A stretch of DNA of 42,978 nt from an uncultured Candidatus Saccharibacteria bacterium (GTDB lineage Bacteria; Patescibacteriota; Minisyncoccia; Phycocordibacterales; UBA918), in assembly GCA_964576905.1 (NCBI GenBank), contig CAZNWG010000003.1, positions 1 to 42,978 of the forward strand, in the 5' to 3' direction. Below the pieces are notes generated by a model, which did no database searches, had not been told where the DNA came from, and saw only the letters and a program-made list of their open reading frames with translations. Shown piece by piece: positions 815 to 39,823 of the stretch. The translations under genes were made by a program, and so were the position numbers. The first letter of the stretch is position 1. Each line of letters opens with the position of its first letter.

Positions 815-3800
815 TCATTGGGGTTGGGGTGCGGACGTAGTGGCGAGGGATTTGATGCGGTCGATGACGACAGTGGGCTCCTCGTTCCGCATCGAGAGCT
901 TGCCCTGTACGGCGATGCAGGAGCCGACCGAAAAGAGGTCGTGGTGTGTTTTGTACGTTTCGGGGAACGCGACGATTTCGATACTCTCTTGCCCATCGCC
1001 AATCGTGATGAAGCCCATCTTGTCGCCCTTCTTGGTGAGGATTTCGTGTACGCCCTCCACCATTCCCGCGGTGACGACAGGGATGCCGTTTCGGGTCTCT
1101 CTCTTGATGGCGCCAATCTTGGGTCGCTTCTCTATCTCGGCACGGAACGCGTCGAGGGGGTGCCCCGAGACGTACACGCCGAGGAGCTCTTTCTCCCAGA
1201 GGAGCTTCTGCTCTTTTGTCGCGGGTTCCGCGGGAGCGAGTGAGAGCGTGTGCACCGAAGAGTCACCGAGACTGCCAAAGAGCGAGTCTTGCGCGGACTC
1301 CCTCTGTGCGCTGTGCTCCTTGTGGTAGGCGAGGAGCGTATCGAGGTTGCCGAGCATCTGCCCGCGCTCATGGAAACGGTCGAACGAGCCCGACATGATG
1401 AGTGCCTCGAGGGACTTCTTGTTGAGGTTTTTTGAGGTGACGCGGGAGAGGAAGTCTTGGAGAGAAGCATATGCGCCATGTTTTTTGCGTTCCTCGATGA
1501 TGGATTCAGAAATACCTTCGCCGAAATTCTTGATGGTAGTGAGTCCGAATCTAATCCTGGGAGACACACCTGCATGTGCAGGTACGACCGAGAACGGAGC
1601 AAAGCTCTCATTGATGTCCGGCGGGAGTACCTCAATACCCATGCGCACGCACTCTTGAATGATTTCGGCAATCTTCTCGGTGTCGCCCGCGTCGGCGGTG
1701 AGGACCGCGGACATGTACTCCTCGGGATAGTTCGCCTTCATGTAGGCGGTCTGGTATGCCACGCGCCCGTAGCTCGCCGCGTGTGCCTTGTTGAACCCGT
1801 ACGCGGCAAACGGCTCGATGAGCTTCCAGAGCTTGTCCGCGAGCGACGCGCTCAATTTTCCGTACTCGACAAAGCCCTTCAGGAGCTTTTCCTTCTCGGC
1901 CTCCATCACCGCGGGGATCTTCTTTCCCATTGCCTTTCGGAGCATATCGGCTTCGAGCCACGAGTAGCCGGCGAGCTCGCGCGCAATCATCATGACGTCA
2001 TCTTGGTAGGTAATCACCCCGTACGAACGGTCGAGTATCTTTTCGAGGCGCGGGTCGAGGTAGGAGATGAGCGAGGCATTGTGCTTGCGCTCGATGTACT
2101 GCGGAATGGATTCCATGGGCCCCGGGCGGTAGAGCGCGACCATCGCGTTGATGTCGTGGATGGTCGAGGGGCGGAGCTGTTTCAGAAAGGCGGTCATGCC
2201 ACTTCCGTTTAACTGGAAGAGTCCCATTGTTTCGCCACGCGCGAGCATTGCGAATGTGTTCGCGTCGTCGACGGGAATGTTTTCTATGTCGACCGCGATT
2301 CCGCGTATTTTTTCCACCCGCTTCACCGCGTCGGCGAGTATGGAAAGGTTTTTGATACCGAGAAAGTCGAACTTCAAAAGTCCCACGCCGTCTTCTCCCA
2401 CGGAGTGCATTTCGTACTGGGTGATGAGCTTCCCGGTCTTCGGGTCGGGCTGGACGGGGACGAATTCGGTGAGCGGGAGCGGGGAAATAACGACGCCCGC
2501 GGCGTGCACGCCGACGTGGCGCACGCGTCCCTCAATCTGACGCGCGAGGTCAATAACCTCTTTCGTGTCCGGATCCTTCGCGTAGAGAGTCTTGAGGTCG
2601 GGTTCTATTTCCATCGCTTTTTCGATGGTCATCGGGAACCCCTGACTCCCCATGGGGATGAGCTTCGCGATGCGGTCGCCCACGGCGTACGGGTGACCGA
2701 GAGCACGCGCGACGTCGCGCACCGCAGCGCGCGCCATCATGGTACCGAAGGTGCCAATCTGCGCGACGTTCTCCGCGCCGTACTTCGCGCGCGCGTAGTC
2801 GATAATCTCGTCGCGCCTGTTGTCGGCGAAGTCCATGTCGATGTCGGGGGCGGAGGGACGCTCGGGATTGAGAAAACGCTCGAAGGGAAGCTTGTACTCG
2901 AGCGGGTTCACGTTCGTGATGCCGAGCGCGTACGTGGTGAGCGAGCCAGCGACCGAGCCACGGATGGTGGTGAGGATTTTGCGCTCGCGTGCTTCGCGGA
3001 GGAGGTCACCCACCACGAGGAAGTACTTTGCGTAGCCCTTCATCTTGATGACGCCAAGCTCGTAGTCGAGGCGCTCTTTCACCTTTGCATCTCCGAGGGA
3101 AAGTCCGCGCCACTCAAGACCCTCGTACGCCATGTCGTGGAGTTCTGCGTCTGGCTCTTTGCCACTCTTGATGGCGTACTCGGGAAAGTACCATGTCGCA
3201 CCAGGGGTCATGGTGACGGTGCACTCCTCAGCAATTTTCACCGTATTGGCGAGGGCTTCTTTTCCCACAGTAGTCGCAAAGAGTTCCTGTGCTCGTTCTT
3301 GTGAGATGAACGAGAAGTTCGGCGCGAGCTCGCCTTTGGCGTCCTGTGTCTCCACAATGCCCCCCGATTGAATCTTGAGCATAGTCTCACGCGCGAGATA
3401 ATCACTCTGTTCGAGGTAGTACACGTCGTGCGAAGCGACGAGGGGTGTATTGGATTTTTCCGCGAGCGCCATGATGCTTTTTTGGAGTGCCTCGTGGCCG
3501 TCTATTTCCGGGTGGTGGGTGATTTCGAGATAGCAATCTTCACTGAAAAGTTTTTTGTACCAATCGAGCGACGCTCCCGCACTCTCCGCGTCTCCGTTTT
3601 TGAGCGAGAGTATCGGCTCACCACTGAAGGAGGGGATGATGCAGATAAGGTCCCTGTGGAATTCTTCGATGAGCCCGTGGTCGACACGGGGCTTGTAGTA
3701 GAAACCGTTCACGTACGACTCGGTGACCATCTTGATGAGGTTTTTGTAGCCGTCATTATTTTTCGCGAGGAAGACGACTCGTCCGCGCGGTTTGTCGATA

Positions 3801-4057
3801 CCCGCATCTTTGTCGAAGCGTGTGCGTGGCGCGAGGTAGGCGTCGAGGCCGATGATGGGCTTCACGCCCTCCTTCGTGCACGCTTTGTAGAAATTGATTG
3901 CCCCGTAGAGGCCTCCACTGTCGGTCAGTGCTAGGGCAGACATGCCATCGCGCTTCGCGCGCTGGGCAAGCTCCTTCGGGGTGGGGAGCGCATTGAGGAG
4001 GGAATAGTGCGAGTGCACGTGGAGGTGGATGAAGTTTGGTTTCGTAATCTCGCTCAT
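815..4057 (-). CDS. dnaE: DNA polymerase III alpha subunit
   Basis: 1080-aa ORF. It has an N-terminal PHP motif (HLHVHSHYSLL) and is polymerase-core-like throughout (FDFLGIKNL, ALYRPGPM, FNKAHAASY). Confidence 0.95.
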   Translation of the reverse strand: MSEITKPNFIHLHVHSHYSLLNALPTPKELAQRAKRDGMSALALTDSGGLYGAINFYKACTKEGVKPIIGLDAYLAPRTRFDKDAGIDKPRGRVVFLAKNNDGYKNLIKMVTESYVNGFYYKPRVDHGLIEEFHRDLICIIPSFSGEPILSLKNGDAESAGASLDWYKKLFSEDCYLEITHHPEIDGHEALQKSIMALAEKSNTPLVASHDVYYLEQSDYLARETMLKIQSGGIVETQDAKGELAPNFSFISQERAQELFATTVGKEALANTVKIAEECTVTMTPGATWYFPEYAIKSGKEPDAELHDMAYEGLEWRGLSLGDAKVKERLDYELGVIKMKGYAKYFLVVGDLLREARERKILTTIRGSVAGSLTTYALGITNVNPLEYKLPFERFLNPERPSAPDIDMDFADNRRDEIIDYARAKYGAENVAQIGTFGTMMARAAVRDVARALGHPYAVGDRIAKLIPMGSQGFPMTIEKAMEIEPDLKTLYAKDPDTKEVIDLARQIEGRVRHVGVHAAGVVISPLPLTEFVPVQPDPKTGKLITQYEMHSVGEDGVGLLKFDFLGIKNLSILADAVKRVEKIRGIAVDIENIPVDDANTFAMLARGETMGLFQLNGSGMTAFLKQLRPSTIHDINAMVALYRPGPMESIPQYIERKHNASLISYLDPRLEKILDRSYGVITYQDDVMMIARELAGYSWLEADMLRKAMGKKIPAVMEAEKEKLLKGFVEYGKLSASLADKLWKLIEPFAAYGFNKAHAASYGRVAYQTAYMKANYPEEYMSAVLTADAGDTEKIAEIIQECVRMGIEVLPPDINESFAPFSVVPAHAGVSPRIRFGLTTIKNFGEGISESIIEERKKHGAYASLQDFLSRVTSKNLNKKSLEALIMSGSFDRFHERGQMLGNLDTLLAYHKEHSAQRESAQDSLFGSLGDSSVHTLSLAPAEPATKEQKLLWEKELLGVYVSGHPLDAFRAEIEKRPKIGAIKRETRNGIPVVTAGMVEGVHEILTKKGDKMGFITIGDGQESIEIVAFPETYKTHHDLFSVGSCIAVQGKLSMRNEEPTVVIDRIKSLATTSAPQPQ

Positions 4058-4119
4058 AGTTTATATACAATTGAAATGAATCTTCTTTTTCGGTATTAAC
4101 TTTTTATGGGCACGCATAA

Positions 4120-4157
4120 GCCCCAAAATTAAAATCGAGAGATTTTAATTTTGGGGC
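4120..4157 (+). other. Orphan 17-bp stem / GAGA-loop hairpin in the divergent dnaE-rnhB intergenic region
   Basis: GCCCCAAAATTAAAATC-gaga-GATTTTAATTTTGGGGC followed by TTT. No upstream gene on either strand ends here. Confidence 0.6.
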
Positions 4158-4249
4158 TTTGCTCTACTCGTCGCTGTTACGCGACTCCGTAAGGCCCCTA
4201 AAAAGTTATACCTCAACGAAGATTTCAAAACATATTGTATAGTAGATAA

Positions 4250-4846
4250 GTGAAAAAGCGAATTACCCATATAGTTGGAGTCGACGAAGCCGGACGCGGA
4301 CCTTTAGCCGGACCTGTGGCGGTGGGGATGGTGGTTGTGCCGGTGGATTTTGATTGGGGATTGTTGCTGGGGGGGGGGGACTCGAAAAAGGTGTCGGCGG
4401 AAAATCGCGACGCGATTTTCCGCCGTACCCGCGCGCTCGCGCGCGCGGGTATCCTCGCGTACACCGTCTCGCTCGTCGGCGCATCCACCATCGACCGCAT
4501 CGGCATCACGAAGGCGGTCGCGCTCGGCATCACGCGCTCATTTAGAAAGCTCGCCCCTGACCCACGGAGGACGAGGGTGCTCCTCGATGGGCTCCTCCGC
4601 GCTCCGGAGGAATTTACCGAGCAGGAGACAATCATAAAGGGTGACGCGAAGGAGAAGGTGATAGGACTCGCGTCTATCTGTGCAAAGGTCACGCGCGACG
4701 CCTACATGGTGCGCGTCGCGCGCAACTACCCCGCCTACGGCTTTGACATCCACAAGGGCTACGGCACAAAAATGCACAGCGACGCAATCCGTGCGCACGG
4801 CCTCACAAAGATTCATCGCCGTTCTTTCACGAAGCGGTTTCAGTAG
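4250..4846 (+). CDS. rnhB: Ribonuclease HII
   Basis: GTG start. The motifs VGVDEAGRGPLAGPV, DSKK and HRRSF are typical of RNase HII. Confidence 0.9.
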   Translation: MKKRITHIVGVDEAGRGPLAGPVAVGMVVVPVDFDWGLLLGGGDSKKVSAENRDAIFRRTRALARAGILAYTVSLVGASTIDRIGITKAVALGITRSFRKLAPDPRRTRVLLDGLLRAPEEFTEQETIIKGDAKEKVIGLASICAKVTRDAYMVRVARNYPAYGFDIHKGYGTKMHSDAIRAHGLTKIHRRSFTKRFQ

Positions 4847-25885: not shown

Positions 25886-27181
25886 ATGGCAAAAAAGGTG
25901 GTAGCACAAAAGAAAAAAGTAGCAAAAAAGTCGCCTGCAAAAAAGGCGATTATTAAGTCAGCGCCAAAGAGACAGGTTGCACCAAAAAAAGCACCTGCTA
26001 AAAAAGTGGCCAAAAAAGTTGCCGTCATAAAGAAAAAAGTTGTCGCCAAAAAAGTGGCACCAAAAAAAGCACCCGCTAAAAAAGTTGTCACTAAGAAACT
26101 TTCAAAATCAGAATTACTGCAAGAGCATAAAGCAAGCTCACTTTTGACTCTGGGAAGAACACGTGGATATGTGACATACGATGAAATACTCAAAGAGTTC
26201 CCACAGGTGGAACGCGATATTACGTTCCTCGAAAATCTCTATGAGCGTCTCGCGACTGCGAGTATTGATATTATTGGCGGTGGTGGTATGCTCGGTGATG
26301 AACAAGACAGTGGGCTTCTCGATCGAAAGAATGTATACAAGCGCAGTGATAGCGCGTACGACTCTATTCAGATGTACCTGCGCGAAATCGGCCAGTACCC
26401 ACTCCTCACCGCGCACGAAGAGCGTGTGCTTGCGAAGCGTATCGTCGACGGTGACACCGAAGCGCGTAATCTCCTAGCGCGCGCTAATCTCCGCCTCGTC
26501 GTCTCGATTGCAAAGAAGTACGTGGGGCGCAGTCCCGACCTCACTTTGCTCGACCTCATTCAGGAGGGGAACCTCGGACTCTTTAAGGCCGTCGATAAGT
26601 TTGACTTTACGAAGGGTTTCAAGTTTTCGACCTATGCGACGTGGTGGATACGACAGGCAATTACTCGTGCTTTGGCCGACCAGTCACGCACCATTCGCAT
26701 TCCCGTACACATGGTAGAAACCATGGCGAAGTACAAGCAGGTCGCCCGCCGTCTCGCGCAGGACTTAGGCCGTGACCCGATGGCGGAAGAGATTGCGACC
26801 GAAATGGATGTGGAGGTGGAGAAAATCTACCAGATTGAAAAAATCAGTCAGGACACTATCTCGCTTGAGCTCCCGATTGGGGACGACGATGACCGCTCAC
26901 GTCTCTCAGACTTCATTGCGGATGACAAGATAATGTCTCCCGATCAAGAAGTTGCCCACCGCATCCTTGCCGACCAGATGCAGGAGATACTCGAATCGCT
27001 CTCCGAAAAAGAGCGAAAGATTCTCGAGATGCGCCACGGACTCCTCGATGGTACATACCATACCCTTGAAGAGGTGGGTAAAGAGTTTGGCGTCACCCGC
27101 GAGCGTATTCGACAGATTGAGGCAAAGGCACTCGAGAAGATACGCCAGCACGACAAGGCGAGGAGGTTGAAGAGTTACTAA
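25886..27181 (+). CDS. rpoD: Primary RNA polymerase sigma factor (sigma-70 family), with a Lys/Ala-rich basic N-terminal tail
   Basis: Regions 1.2-4.2 are recognisable ([63 protein letters not shown]). It sits downstream of dnaG, as in the classic dnaG-rpoD arrangement. Confidence 0.95.
27096..27181 (+). repeat. Direct repeat A (86 nt): the last 28 codons plus stop of the expressed rpoD
   Basis: Identical to 27936-27993 over the first 58 nt. There are 7 mismatches in the last 28 nt, all synonymous. Confidence 0.95.
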
Positions 27182-27279
27182 TTGTTAATTAGGATTACTT
27201 TATCAATTTGTTGAATCTTGTATACTGTAATTAAATTAAGTTGTAGAGTTACGCATGATTAAATATTTGAATAAATTAT

Positions 27280-27498
27280 ATGAAAGAATATACAAGTTTT
27301 ACACTTAGATTGTTTAAAAAACAGAAAACATCACCATTTATTGAAGGAATGGCTTCTATTCTTGACAATTCAAATTCTGATTATAAATACAATTTTGACA
27401 AAACTGATTCTGATGCTGATAGAAAATCTATACAAGCAGATTGGAAACAAGTTGGTGCAGATTTACAAACTGTTATGATGCAACATGCCACAAAGTGA
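27280..27498 (+). CDS. Hypothetical small protein (72 aa), first gene of the insertion cassette
   Basis: An ORF in AT-rich DNA whose 3' end overlaps the downstream ORF's start by 14 nt. Its C-terminus reads DRKSIQADWKQVGADLQTVM. No family is assigned with confidence. Confidence 0.5.
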   Translation: MKEYTSFTLRLFKKQKTSPFIEGMASILDNSNSDYKYNFDKTDSDADRKSIQADWKQVGADLQTVMMQHATK

Positions 27499-27916
27499 AA
27501 AACAAGATGAAGGTGTTGAGATTGTTAAAGAACAACGAGCATCGTCTGAGCAACAACTTGTATCTGCAGAATATTACGAAGGCATCATACCTCACCCACG
27601 CCTAATGAGAGAATGGGAAGAAGTGGTTCCTGGTTCAGCAGACTCTATTTTTAAGCGTTTTGAAGAGCAGTCCAAACATCGTATAAAAATTGAAGAAAAG
27701 GTTGTTGGTGCAAATAACTTTAAACTCATTATTGGTCCGATATTTGCATTCATCATTGCGATGACAACTATTGGCGGTGGTATTTGGATTGCTTTAGCAA
27801 CGCCAACAACAGCTGGAGCAATATTGGGAGGATTTTTAACCTTATCTGGATTAGGTACTGTCGTCACTCCATTTCTCGTGACAGAGTTTAGAAAGAAAAA
27901 AGAAGATAATAGCTGA
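27485..27916 (+). CDS. DUF2335-like membrane protein (143 aa, two predicted C-terminal TM helices)
   Basis: YEGIIPHPRLMREWEEVVPGSADSIFKRFEEQSKHRIKIEE resembles the conserved DUF2335 N-terminal block as I recall it (P-P..L..Y....PG.a..I....E.E..HR). Two hydrophobic segments follow (IIGPIFAFIIAMTTIGGGIWIAL and GAILGGFLTLSGLGTVVTPFLV). Confidence 0.6.
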   Translation: MPQSEKQDEGVEIVKEQRASSEQQLVSAEYYEGIIPHPRLMREWEEVVPGSADSIFKRFEEQSKHRIKIEEKVVGANNFKLIIGPIFAFIIAMTTIGGGIWIALATPTTAGAILGGFLTLSGLGTVVTPFLVTEFRKKKEDNS

Positions 27917-27935
27917 ACTATTAAAGGACTTCTAG

Positions 27936-28021
27936 CCCGCGAGCGTATTCGACAGATTGAGGCAAAGGCACTCGAGAAGATACGCCAGCACGATAAGGCG
28001 CGGAGATTGAAGTCGTACTAG
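27936..28021 (+). repeat. Direct repeat B (86 nt): an orphan second copy of the rpoD 3' end, with no upstream rpoD sequence
   Basis: Encodes the same peptide (..[27 protein letters not shown]) as repeat A, using different codons for D, R, R, S and the stop. A REP hairpin and a terminator follow it. Confidence 0.95.
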
Positions 28022-28048
28022 AATTATGGACATCCGATGTCCATAATT
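28022..28048. repeat. REP-like palindromic element, copy 4 (core at 28026-28044)
   Basis: AATTATGGACATCCGATGTCCATAATT followed by TTTTT. It starts 1 nt after the TAG of repeat B. Confidence 0.9.
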
Positions 28049-28052
28049 TTTT

Positions 28053-28091
28053 AAAAACGCGCGGGTTGCCTTTGGCAATCCGCGCGTTTTC
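28053..28091 (+). terminator. Rho-independent terminator (native rpoD terminator)
   Basis: AAAACGCGCGGGTTGCC-ttt-GGCAATCCGCGCGTTTT, a 17-bp stem including one G-U pair. Confidence 0.8.
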
Positions 28092-28099
28092 GTGTGGCA

Positions 28100-28132
28100 A
28101 ACAAAAACCGCGCGATGCATTGCGCGGCTTTT
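28100..28132 (-). terminator. Rho-independent terminator for the minus-strand kinase-like gene
   Basis: On the minus strand: AAAAGCCGCGC-aatgcatc-GCGCGGTTTTTGTTTG. Confidence 0.75.
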
Positions 28133-28146
28133 CGGGTAGTACTTCA

Positions 28147-39792: not shown

Positions 39793-39823
39793 AAAAATAT
39801 GGACATCGGATGTCCATATTTTT
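39793..39823. repeat. REP-like palindromic element, copy 5 (core at 39799-39817)
   Basis: AAAAATATGGACATCGGATGTCCATATTTTT lies between convergent genes. Its central base orientation matches copy 1 and is opposite to copies 2-4. Confidence 0.9.

Follow-up and report, generated by a model that had tools for sequence, protein, structure and literature searches.

The stretch of DNA analyzed here (the window; 42,978 nucleotides from an uncultured Candidatus Saccharibacteria bacterium) carries a small AT-rich insert directly behind rpoD, and on this insert lie two overlapping open reading frames (ORFs): ORF1, which encodes a small hydrophilic protein, and ORF2, which encodes a membrane protein of the DUF2335 family. 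Comparison across loci indicates that the two genes are a real, widespread two-gene unit, the partner (ORF1) family of which is missing from Pfam and NCBIfam. A unit common in phages and bacteria has thereby been overlooked: the partner family comprises ∼3000 clusters (formed at 50% identity) and is often left unannotated. Tentatively, we read the pair as an addiction or defense module that acts at the membrane.

Both genes lie on the same strand, one frame apart, and overlap by 14 nt, the ATG of ORF2 being located at 27485 and the stop codon of ORF1 at 27496–27498. An earlier reading of this DNA from its letters alone (the sequence-only reading) had given the coordinates and lengths of the ORFs and their overlap exactly. 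It had also described the insertion as a self-contained, overlapping cassette with only these two ORFs; indeed, no other ORF of the insert has relatives. ORF1 and ORF2 are genuine genes under strong purifying selection and not chance ORFs. The ratio of nonsynonymous to synonymous substitution rates (dN/dS), taken only where dS was unsaturated, is 0.12 for ORF1 between the window and a locus from another lineage (L005) and 0.07 for each gene between L006 and L010.

ORF2 matches the Pfam family DUF2335 (PF10097) with 37.9 bits (E = 1.6e-9; gathering cut-off, 25 bits), with residues 36–82 aligning to model positions 1–47 of 50, and all 65 aligned relatives of ORF2 match the same family. It also matches phrog_3996, annotated as “membrane protein,” at 1e-23. 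Hydropathy peaks at residues 82–99 and 105–126 and places two transmembrane (TM) helices at about 83–104 and 109–131, separated by an outer loop of 4–5 residues and followed by a basic C-terminal tail, which agrees with the DUF2335-like protein with two TM helices that had been proposed from the sequence. The AlphaFold2 (AF2) model, computed with the 65 relatives in the alignment, has a mean predicted local distance difference test (pLDDT) score of 85. Here, residues 1–30 are disordered and followed by a short helix (38–47), a long helix (51–105) that carries the conserved cytoplasmic block into the first span, a 3-residue turn, and a last helix (109–142); both of the long helices score above 90. 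Because the N-terminal domain is acidic and the C-terminal tail is basic, both ends of the modeled protein should be cytoplasmic. The SEC-C zinc-motif tails that some homologues carry at the C terminus fit this orientation.

The conserved cytoplasmic block of DUF2335 consists of G-x-x-P-x-P ... P-G-x-A ... Q-x-x-H-R-x-x-x-E and is followed by the two TM helices. Across the 65 relatives, P36, G50, and F130 are invariant, and G33, P38, P49, A52, Q62, H65, R66, E70, G84, F89, G115, and L123 are at least 90% conserved. The hairpin itself is glycine-rich, with G98, G99, G115, and G122 invariant in the 11 closest relatives. ORF2 thus shares block and hairpin with the Pfam DUF2335 and PHROG 3996 entries and is a member by profile score; the entries record no upstream partner and assign no function. 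That DUF2335 has no established function, as stated previously, is in line with our literature and database searches, which yielded none, and the literature on PF10097 and COG5346 held nothing useful on function. The literature has a “DUF2335 phospholipase” in lists of type VI effectors, apparently a mistaken entry for DUF2235.

ORF1 is predicted to be a small cytoplasmic helical protein and belongs to a large family. Its maximum hydropathy over 19 residues is −0.03. The AF2 model (mean pLDDT 70) features a poorly ordered N-terminal third, a short helix (residues 19–28), and a long, confident C-terminal helix (residues 43–71). The protein displays the motifs TFRLFK, SF..G.aS.LD, YN, and AD...DW.QVG.DL. 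An alignment of 58 relatives bears out the small, hydrophilic protein with a conserved C-terminal motif (DWxQVGxDL) that the sequence-only reading had described: the pattern D-W-x-x-V-G-x-D-L hardly varies, positions D54, G59, and D61 do not vary at all, and at least 90% of the relatives retain W55. L11, A46, and D47 are also invariant, and T8, F9, R10, F12, Y37, and W55 are nearly so. An indexed search returned 59 clusters of relatives, and an exhaustive search of 1.84 billion representatives returned 3018 clusters at E ≤ 1e-3, 429 of them at E ≤ 1e-10; the best 150 of the 3018 are 52–124 residues long. ORF1 has no match in Pfam, NCBIfam, or PADLOC. Its relatives weakly match phrog_26284 and phrog_27385, the first of which is also matched by the partner protein from Pseudomonas phage MD8.

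A hidden Markov model (HMM) was built from the 58 ORF1 relatives and run on 4539 stop-to-stop ORFs of the collected loci. In 15 of 22 distinct loci it matched solely the ORF directly upstream of the DUF2335 gene (E values from 1e-35 to 0.011), for example in Leptospira phage LE1 (4e-14), a gut phage (2e-6), a Ralstonia phage (1e-4), and phage MD8 (0.002). The matching loci include candidate-phyla bacteria as well as Leptospira, Ralstonia, Pseudomonas, and gut phages. The earlier reading had named two sequence findings that would refute it, a lack of profile support for DUF2335 membership and a lack of joint conservation of the two ORFs anywhere else; both tests came out in its favor. In six further loci, a small ORF occupies this upstream position. 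Two of these are unannotated ORFs, each with a (W/M)-x-V-G-D motif, on an E. coli ST648 prophage (L050, 5488–5736; 82 amino acids, paired with WP_001154803) and an Azospirillum plasmid (L045, about 3620–3865); in both cases RefSeq calls the DUF2335 gene and not the partner ORF directly upstream. Over 55 locus pairs, the identities of the one protein rise and fall with those of the other (r = 0.85). In close relatives, the start codon of ORF2 is located within the end of the upstream small ORF or immediately next to it (the latter in L028), and the other measured loci show overlaps of 1–53 nt, with an 18-nt gap in the E. coli prophage. Taken together, these comparisons indicate that ORF1 and ORF2 form a unit and are, as a rule, inherited jointly.

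In L032, from a genome of 3 Mb with a high GC content, the gene for a 229-amino acid protein (3758–4447) is located 554 nt upstream of the DUF2335 gene. The last 60 residues of this protein resemble the partner (hhalign E = 2.8e-4, probability 41%; HMM E = 0.011), and its N-terminal part shows a faint match to PadR-type winged-helix domains. The protein may thus combine the partner with a DNA-binding domain; this candidate fusion was set aside for its marginal support.

Outside the window lineage, the pair is found behind rpoD in two further lineages, L005 (66–69% identical) and L026/L027 (DUF2335 with a SEC-C tail). It also occurs behind a DEAD-box helicase gene and before rpmB (L006–L017), between rpsG and fusA (L018), behind gap (L020–L025), behind hisF, where it adjoins GmrSD and two Rpn genes (L028), next to an IS1595 transposase (L030), and behind a hydrolase gene in a Candidatus Sungiibacteriota genome (L036). 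In the small-genome metagenome relatives, the pair follows closely on a housekeeping gene in the same orientation. The subfamily of the window is represented by one locus in 185,579 species-representative genomes and by three in a metagenome scan. Such settings could be taken to mean that the pair serves an ordinary accessory membrane function, for example as an envelope or stress adaptor, and was moved by a one-off recombination, being neither selfish nor defensive. The close, co-oriented housekeeping genes, the strong purifying selection, the resident, repeat-free look of most small-genome loci, and the SEC-C tails of some homologues, a motif known from SecA, are all consistent with this explanation. 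However, the distribution is patchy (the single locus of the subfamily among species representatives, and 55 of 5426 E. coli genomes), phages, a phage-plasmid, and sites flanked by insertion sequences (ISs) repeatedly carry the pair, and the composition of the insert in the window is foreign to its host. We regard an ordinary accessory function as doubtful.

The rpsG–fusA gap of the str operon holds differing small cassettes in different small-genome lineages. In L018 (7814–9265) it contains the DUF2335 pair together with ORFs of 63 and 106 amino acids, and in L006 (8455–9273) an ORF of 111 amino acids and a HicA toxin gene. Small modules seem to have landed repeatedly in this gap, behind highly expressed genes.

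All seven of the examined phage records contain the pair, which lies among accessory genes in the five that are annotated. It is positioned right after the holin–lysin genes in Streptococcus phage Javan433 and Lactococcus phages D6890 and proPhi6, adjoins the integrase in Pseudomonas phage MD8, and is near a toxin gene in Leptospira phage LE1; the unannotated Ralstonia phage YO375_1 (L041) and gut phage (L043) complete the set. The E. coli prophage with the pair, present in the 55 genomes mentioned above, has YafO and BRO-N genes beside it. A scan of viral contigs found no locus of the pair. PHROGs assigns the DUF2335 family to the category “moron, auxiliary metabolic gene and host takeover.” This category and the company of lysis, integrase, and toxin genes would suit superinfection exclusion or lysogenic conversion, whereby ORF2 in the inner membrane would block DNA entry or another envelope step, ORF1 would act as assembly factor or regulator, and nothing would be toxic. 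The predicted topology of ORF2 is likewise suited to action at the cytoplasmic face of the membrane. On the other hand, its short outer loop leaves almost nothing exposed outside the membrane, and the solitary copies behind housekeeping genes of tiny genomes, with no prophage nearby, would need another rationale. Moreover, likeness to known exclusion proteins was not seen in general searches, none of which was against a dedicated library. We consider exclusion unlikely.

The position directly after holin–lysin genes in the Streptococcus and Lactococcus phages also raises the idea of a phage-derived lysis-timing pair, a holin-like protein with a cytoplasmic antiholin, in which case the window would hold a leftover copy. 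Two TM helices with both termini inside and a charged tail resemble class II holins, and 3 of the 65 ORF2 homologues weakly match Holin-X (best E = 0.005). These matches are, however, sub-threshold and scattered among many unrelated TM families, and ORF2 of the window has no holin match. The Streptococcus and Lactococcus phages already possess an annotated holin, whereas phages MD8 and LE1, the E. coli prophages, and all small-genome loci have no adjacent lysin. A leftover would also not show dN/dS values of 0.07–0.12. This explanation is very improbable and ranks last.

Ahead of these three rivals, we favor, still tentatively, the reading that the cytoplasmic partner controls a membrane-hairpin effector as an addiction or defense module, a reading that draws on architecture and distribution. 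ORF1 would bind the cytoplasmic domain of ORF2 and keep ORF2 inactive, or would act as a sensor. Free or triggered ORF2 would oligomerize via its glycine-rich hairpin and damage the membrane barrier, and the pair would thereby act in addiction or abortive defense. We favor this reading because of the gene order and overlap, the glycine-rich hairpin, the patchy, mobile distribution, the neighborhood of YafO, GmrSD, Rpn, and IS elements, and the cassette kept unchanged between direct repeats. An addiction or abortive role would explain why the pair is retained between recombination-prone direct repeats, or as a phage moron.

The closest known logic to this proposal is that of SpoIISA–SpoIISB, in which binding of a small soluble protein to its cytoplasmic domain restrains a membrane protein that would otherwise cause membrane damage. 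In this two-gene operon of Bacillus subtilis, a membrane toxin with a cytoplasmic domain is neutralized by a small hydrophilic protein; SpoIISA has three N-terminal TM helices, and the toxin gene comes first. In contrast, the pair in the window has a C-terminal hairpin and the small gene first, and no likeness in sequence or fold was found. RexA–RexB of phage lambda and similar two-gene abortive systems of prophages combine a soluble sensor with a membrane effector. Here the analogy lies in an accessory, prophage-borne arrangement with the gene for the soluble protein just before that for the membrane protein, whereas RexA is much larger than ORF1, RexB has four TM helices, and the pair has no PADLOC match.

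Family searches returned little beyond DUF2335. In PADLOC-DB v2, no family matched either protein at E ≤ 1, and in Pfam and NCBIfam the DUF2335 match of ORF2 is the sole one for the pair. Sequence and profile searches of the PDB gave nothing below E = 0.3. Foldseek, run with the ORF2 model against the PDB, gave only generic helical hairpins and nothing below E = 1, and BFVD contained only uncharacterized phage homologues. A Pfam scan of the 65 ORF2 relatives revealed nothing consistent beyond DUF2335; a SLATT_4 lead from one homologue (E = 0.09) was dropped, as it did not recur across the 65 relatives. The link to toxin–antitoxin, abortive-infection, exclusion, or holin families that the sequence-only reading had drawn accordingly found no support in PADLOC, NCBIfam, the PDB, Foldseek (ORF2), or BFVD, and its functional reading is reasonable and unproven.

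The AT-rich insert measures 755 bp (27182–27935), begins directly after the rpoD stop codon, and has a GC content of 23–40%, compared with about 50% in both flanks. It is bracketed by an 85-nt direct repeat (27096–27180 and 27936–28020; 93% identical), and insert plus one repeat copy make up an 840-base unit. No other insert bounded by direct repeats is found within the window. Each repeat copy encodes the last 28 residues of RpoD, and the same peptide results from both, all differences being synonymous (GAC/GAT, AGG/CGG, AGG/AGA, AGT/TCG, and TAA/TAG). The left copy is the one delivered by the insert and now finishes the working rpoD; the right copy matches RpoD residues 403–431 with 93% in tblastn. 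ORF1 and ORF2 are the sole genes of the insert, which carries no integrase, and terminal inverted repeats were not found at its ends. The parts of the insert and its borders are compiled in Table 1.

Table 1. Layout of the insert behind rpoD and of its borders (window coordinates)
Feature	Coordinates	Strand	Remarks
Left repeat copy plus stop codon	27096..27181	+	Working rpoD 3' end; codons AGG AGG ... AGT TAC TAA; runs straight into the AT-rich insert
AT-rich leader, 98 nt, from rpoD stop to ORF1	27182..27279	+	
ORF1, 72 amino acids, hydrophilic cytoplasmic protein (predicted)	27280..27498	+	No Pfam model
ORF2, 143 amino acids, DUF2335 protein	27485..27916	+	Pfam 37.9 bits
Spacer, 19 nt, from ORF2 stop to right repeat	27917..27935	+	Right end of the inserted DNA
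Right repeat copy, displaced native rpoD 3' end	27936..28022	+	Codons CGG AGA ... TCG TAC TAG; joined to no gene
Two hairpins after the native rpoD stop	28022..28090	+	Palindrome AATTATGGACATCCGATGTCCATAATT, then T-run; GC-rich hairpin 28054–28090

The insertion is best explained without an enzyme encoded by the insert, namely by a single, Campbell-type crossover of a circular 840-bp DNA that carried an rpoD 3' end. One recombination with the resident rpoD would put the incoming rpoD end into service and displace the native end, and a loop-out would use the same 85-nt homology arm as the integration. Homologous Campbell-type integration and loop-out via this arm is the simplest model, because a recombinase and terminal inverted repeats are lacking and because of a recombinant junction and a comparison with sister assemblies, both described below. 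The donor could be an organism with the pair already behind rpoD, as in L005. Read in this way, the insertion shows a tiny, enzyme-free cassette that is able to enter and leave the 3' end of an essential gene.

The junction is found on contig L001, where rpoD is followed by the left repeat, the element, a hybrid repeat, and the left end of the element again. The hybrid repeat is of the right-hand type in its 5' part and of the element type in its 3' part. This contig stems from a MEGAHIT assembly with k = 141, which exceeds the repeat length. Precisely such a junction is expected if the two repeats recombine with each other, whether the product is an excised 840-bp circle or a tandem copy.

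Identical proteins are encoded behind rpoD on four short contigs of other assemblies, apparently of the same population. In the element body, all four contigs show 100% identity, and in the upstream rpoD they differ by 1–2.5%. In one of them (L002), the displaced right-hand fragment (617–702) differs from the window (27936–28022) at 10 of 87 positions, all synonymous, with 0 differences in the element and 0 in the 534 nt downstream. Ten changes that are exclusively synonymous are odd for DNA that is no longer translated. The sequence pattern suggests that the displaced fragments come from differing working rpoD alleles rather than from decay in place. The processes it points to are an exchange with other rpoD alleles or several rounds of integration and excision.

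Integrative elements, such as islands in tRNA, tmRNA, or protein genes, can carry a replacement 3' end of their target gene. Likewise, the last 85 nt of rpoD are provided by the insert in a synonymous version, which leaves the gene intact and the native end displaced downstream. In contrast to such elements, the 755-bp insert has no integrase, nor do the 28 larger ORFs scanned in the window. Furthermore, its repeat is long and diverged in the 3' third instead of a short, identical attachment (att) core, as expected for homologous recombination. Features of ISs or miniature inverted-repeat transposable elements are also absent: the ends of the insert have no inverted repeats, and the only flanking duplication is the one of 85 nt with 93% identity. 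At nine other loci, the 3' end of the upstream gene is not duplicated around the pair, and the rpoD repeat is restricted to the window lineage. The description of the cassette as riding on an “element that targets an essential gene” was therefore overstated, given that integrase and terminal inverted repeats are lacking, that the rpoD repeat exists in this lineage only, and that related pairs are located behind several different genes.

On its upstream side the pair has the rpoD stop codon, and on its downstream side the apparent rpoD terminators. The two hairpins at the far side of the displaced repeat are, judged from their sequence, probably the original rpoD terminators, now located past the cassette; a consensus terminator scan did not call them. 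The same kind of scan detected no promoter-like or terminator-like site on the plus strand between the rpoD stop and ORF1. Because no such site intervenes, because the hairpins follow the cassette, and because relatives are co-oriented with their upstream genes, the pair is likely expressed by read-through from rpoD with coupled translation, in which translation of ORF2 would be coupled to that of ORF1. A sigma or anti-sigma role, suggested by the rpoD neighborhood, was rejected: relatives sit behind unrelated genes, and the RpoD protein is unaltered by the insert.

Combined into one picture, the pair would be an unrecognized, very widespread membrane-acting addiction or anti-phage module of temperate phages, enterobacterial prophages, and candidate-phyla bacteria, which spreads here without a recombinase as an 840-bp circle with an rpoD 3'-end homology arm and is transcribed from rpoD. 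We hold this picture to be doubtful as a whole. Several points weigh against the favored reading and against the insertion model. Neither protein resembles a known toxin, antitoxin, abortive-infection (Abi), holin, or exclusion family; the compact layout of overlapping or adjacent small genes known from type II toxin–antitoxin systems is present, and a match of either protein to a known toxin or antitoxin family is not. Classical type II antitoxins usually possess a DNA-binding fold, and no such fold is recognizable in ORF1, the model of which (mean pLDDT only 70) does not resemble a helix-turn-helix, ribbon-helix-helix, or AbrB domain. The Enterobacter phage-plasmid L044 has an unrelated ORF of 157 amino acids upstream of its DUF2335 gene, and in L037 the partner apparently lacks its middle third next to an intact DUF2335, both of which are awkward for a strict antitoxin role. 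Most loci are without a sign of recent mobility, and the circle or tandem junction is known from one short metagenome contig. Finally, an empty rpoD site was not found when searched for via the downstream gene, the contigs ending at a palindrome or differing upstream.

If the pair is a membrane-acting addiction or defense module, it would define a new family of such modules and provide a rare functional lead for the accessory genes of candidate-phyla bacteria. Tractable representatives are available in E. coli prophages and in phages of Lactococcus, Streptococcus, and Pseudomonas.

The rest of the 43-kb window is core chromosome, with dnaE, smc, rnr, rpoB, rpoC, dnaG, rpoD, and a Na/H exchanger gene, as well as an AddA-like helicase gene, a P-type ATPase gene, hisS, nusB, rnc, and trmD. 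A domain scan of the 28 ORFs of at least 150 amino acids detected no integrase, recombinase, transposase, phage-gene, or lysin domain, and the window contains no tRNA genes. The window holds five copies (52–82, 582–612, 782–812, 28020–28050, and 39793–39823) of a perfect palindrome of 21–27 nt (TATGGACATCSGATGTCCATA) flanked by AT-rich sequence; most of them are located just past gene ends, and metagenome contigs break at this palindrome. It is either similar to a repetitive extragenic palindromic (REP) element or a shared terminator or protein-binding site. In contig L048 (from SRR18682681), the last 95 nt, on the reversed strand, hold a different gene end, not that of rpoD, beyond the palindrome before the downstream gene; either the strain is rearranged or the assembly has been joined through the palindrome. 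An Rfam match to the Leu operon leader at 28049–28135 is below threshold (25.9 bits; gathering score, 50 bits; E = 0.013). It coincides in part with the GC-rich hairpin behind rpoD and most likely reflects just a terminator-like structure.

The rpoD gene itself is full-length (25886–27181, plus strand), and RpoD models match its product at 1e-128. The N terminus of RpoD (25886–26100) is an array of Lys/Ala/Pro/Val-rich repeats, in which related units recur at a spacing of 15–120 nt. In a strain variant (L003), a 60-nt (20-amino acid) insertion in this array extends the protein to 451 amino acids, compared with 431 in the window.

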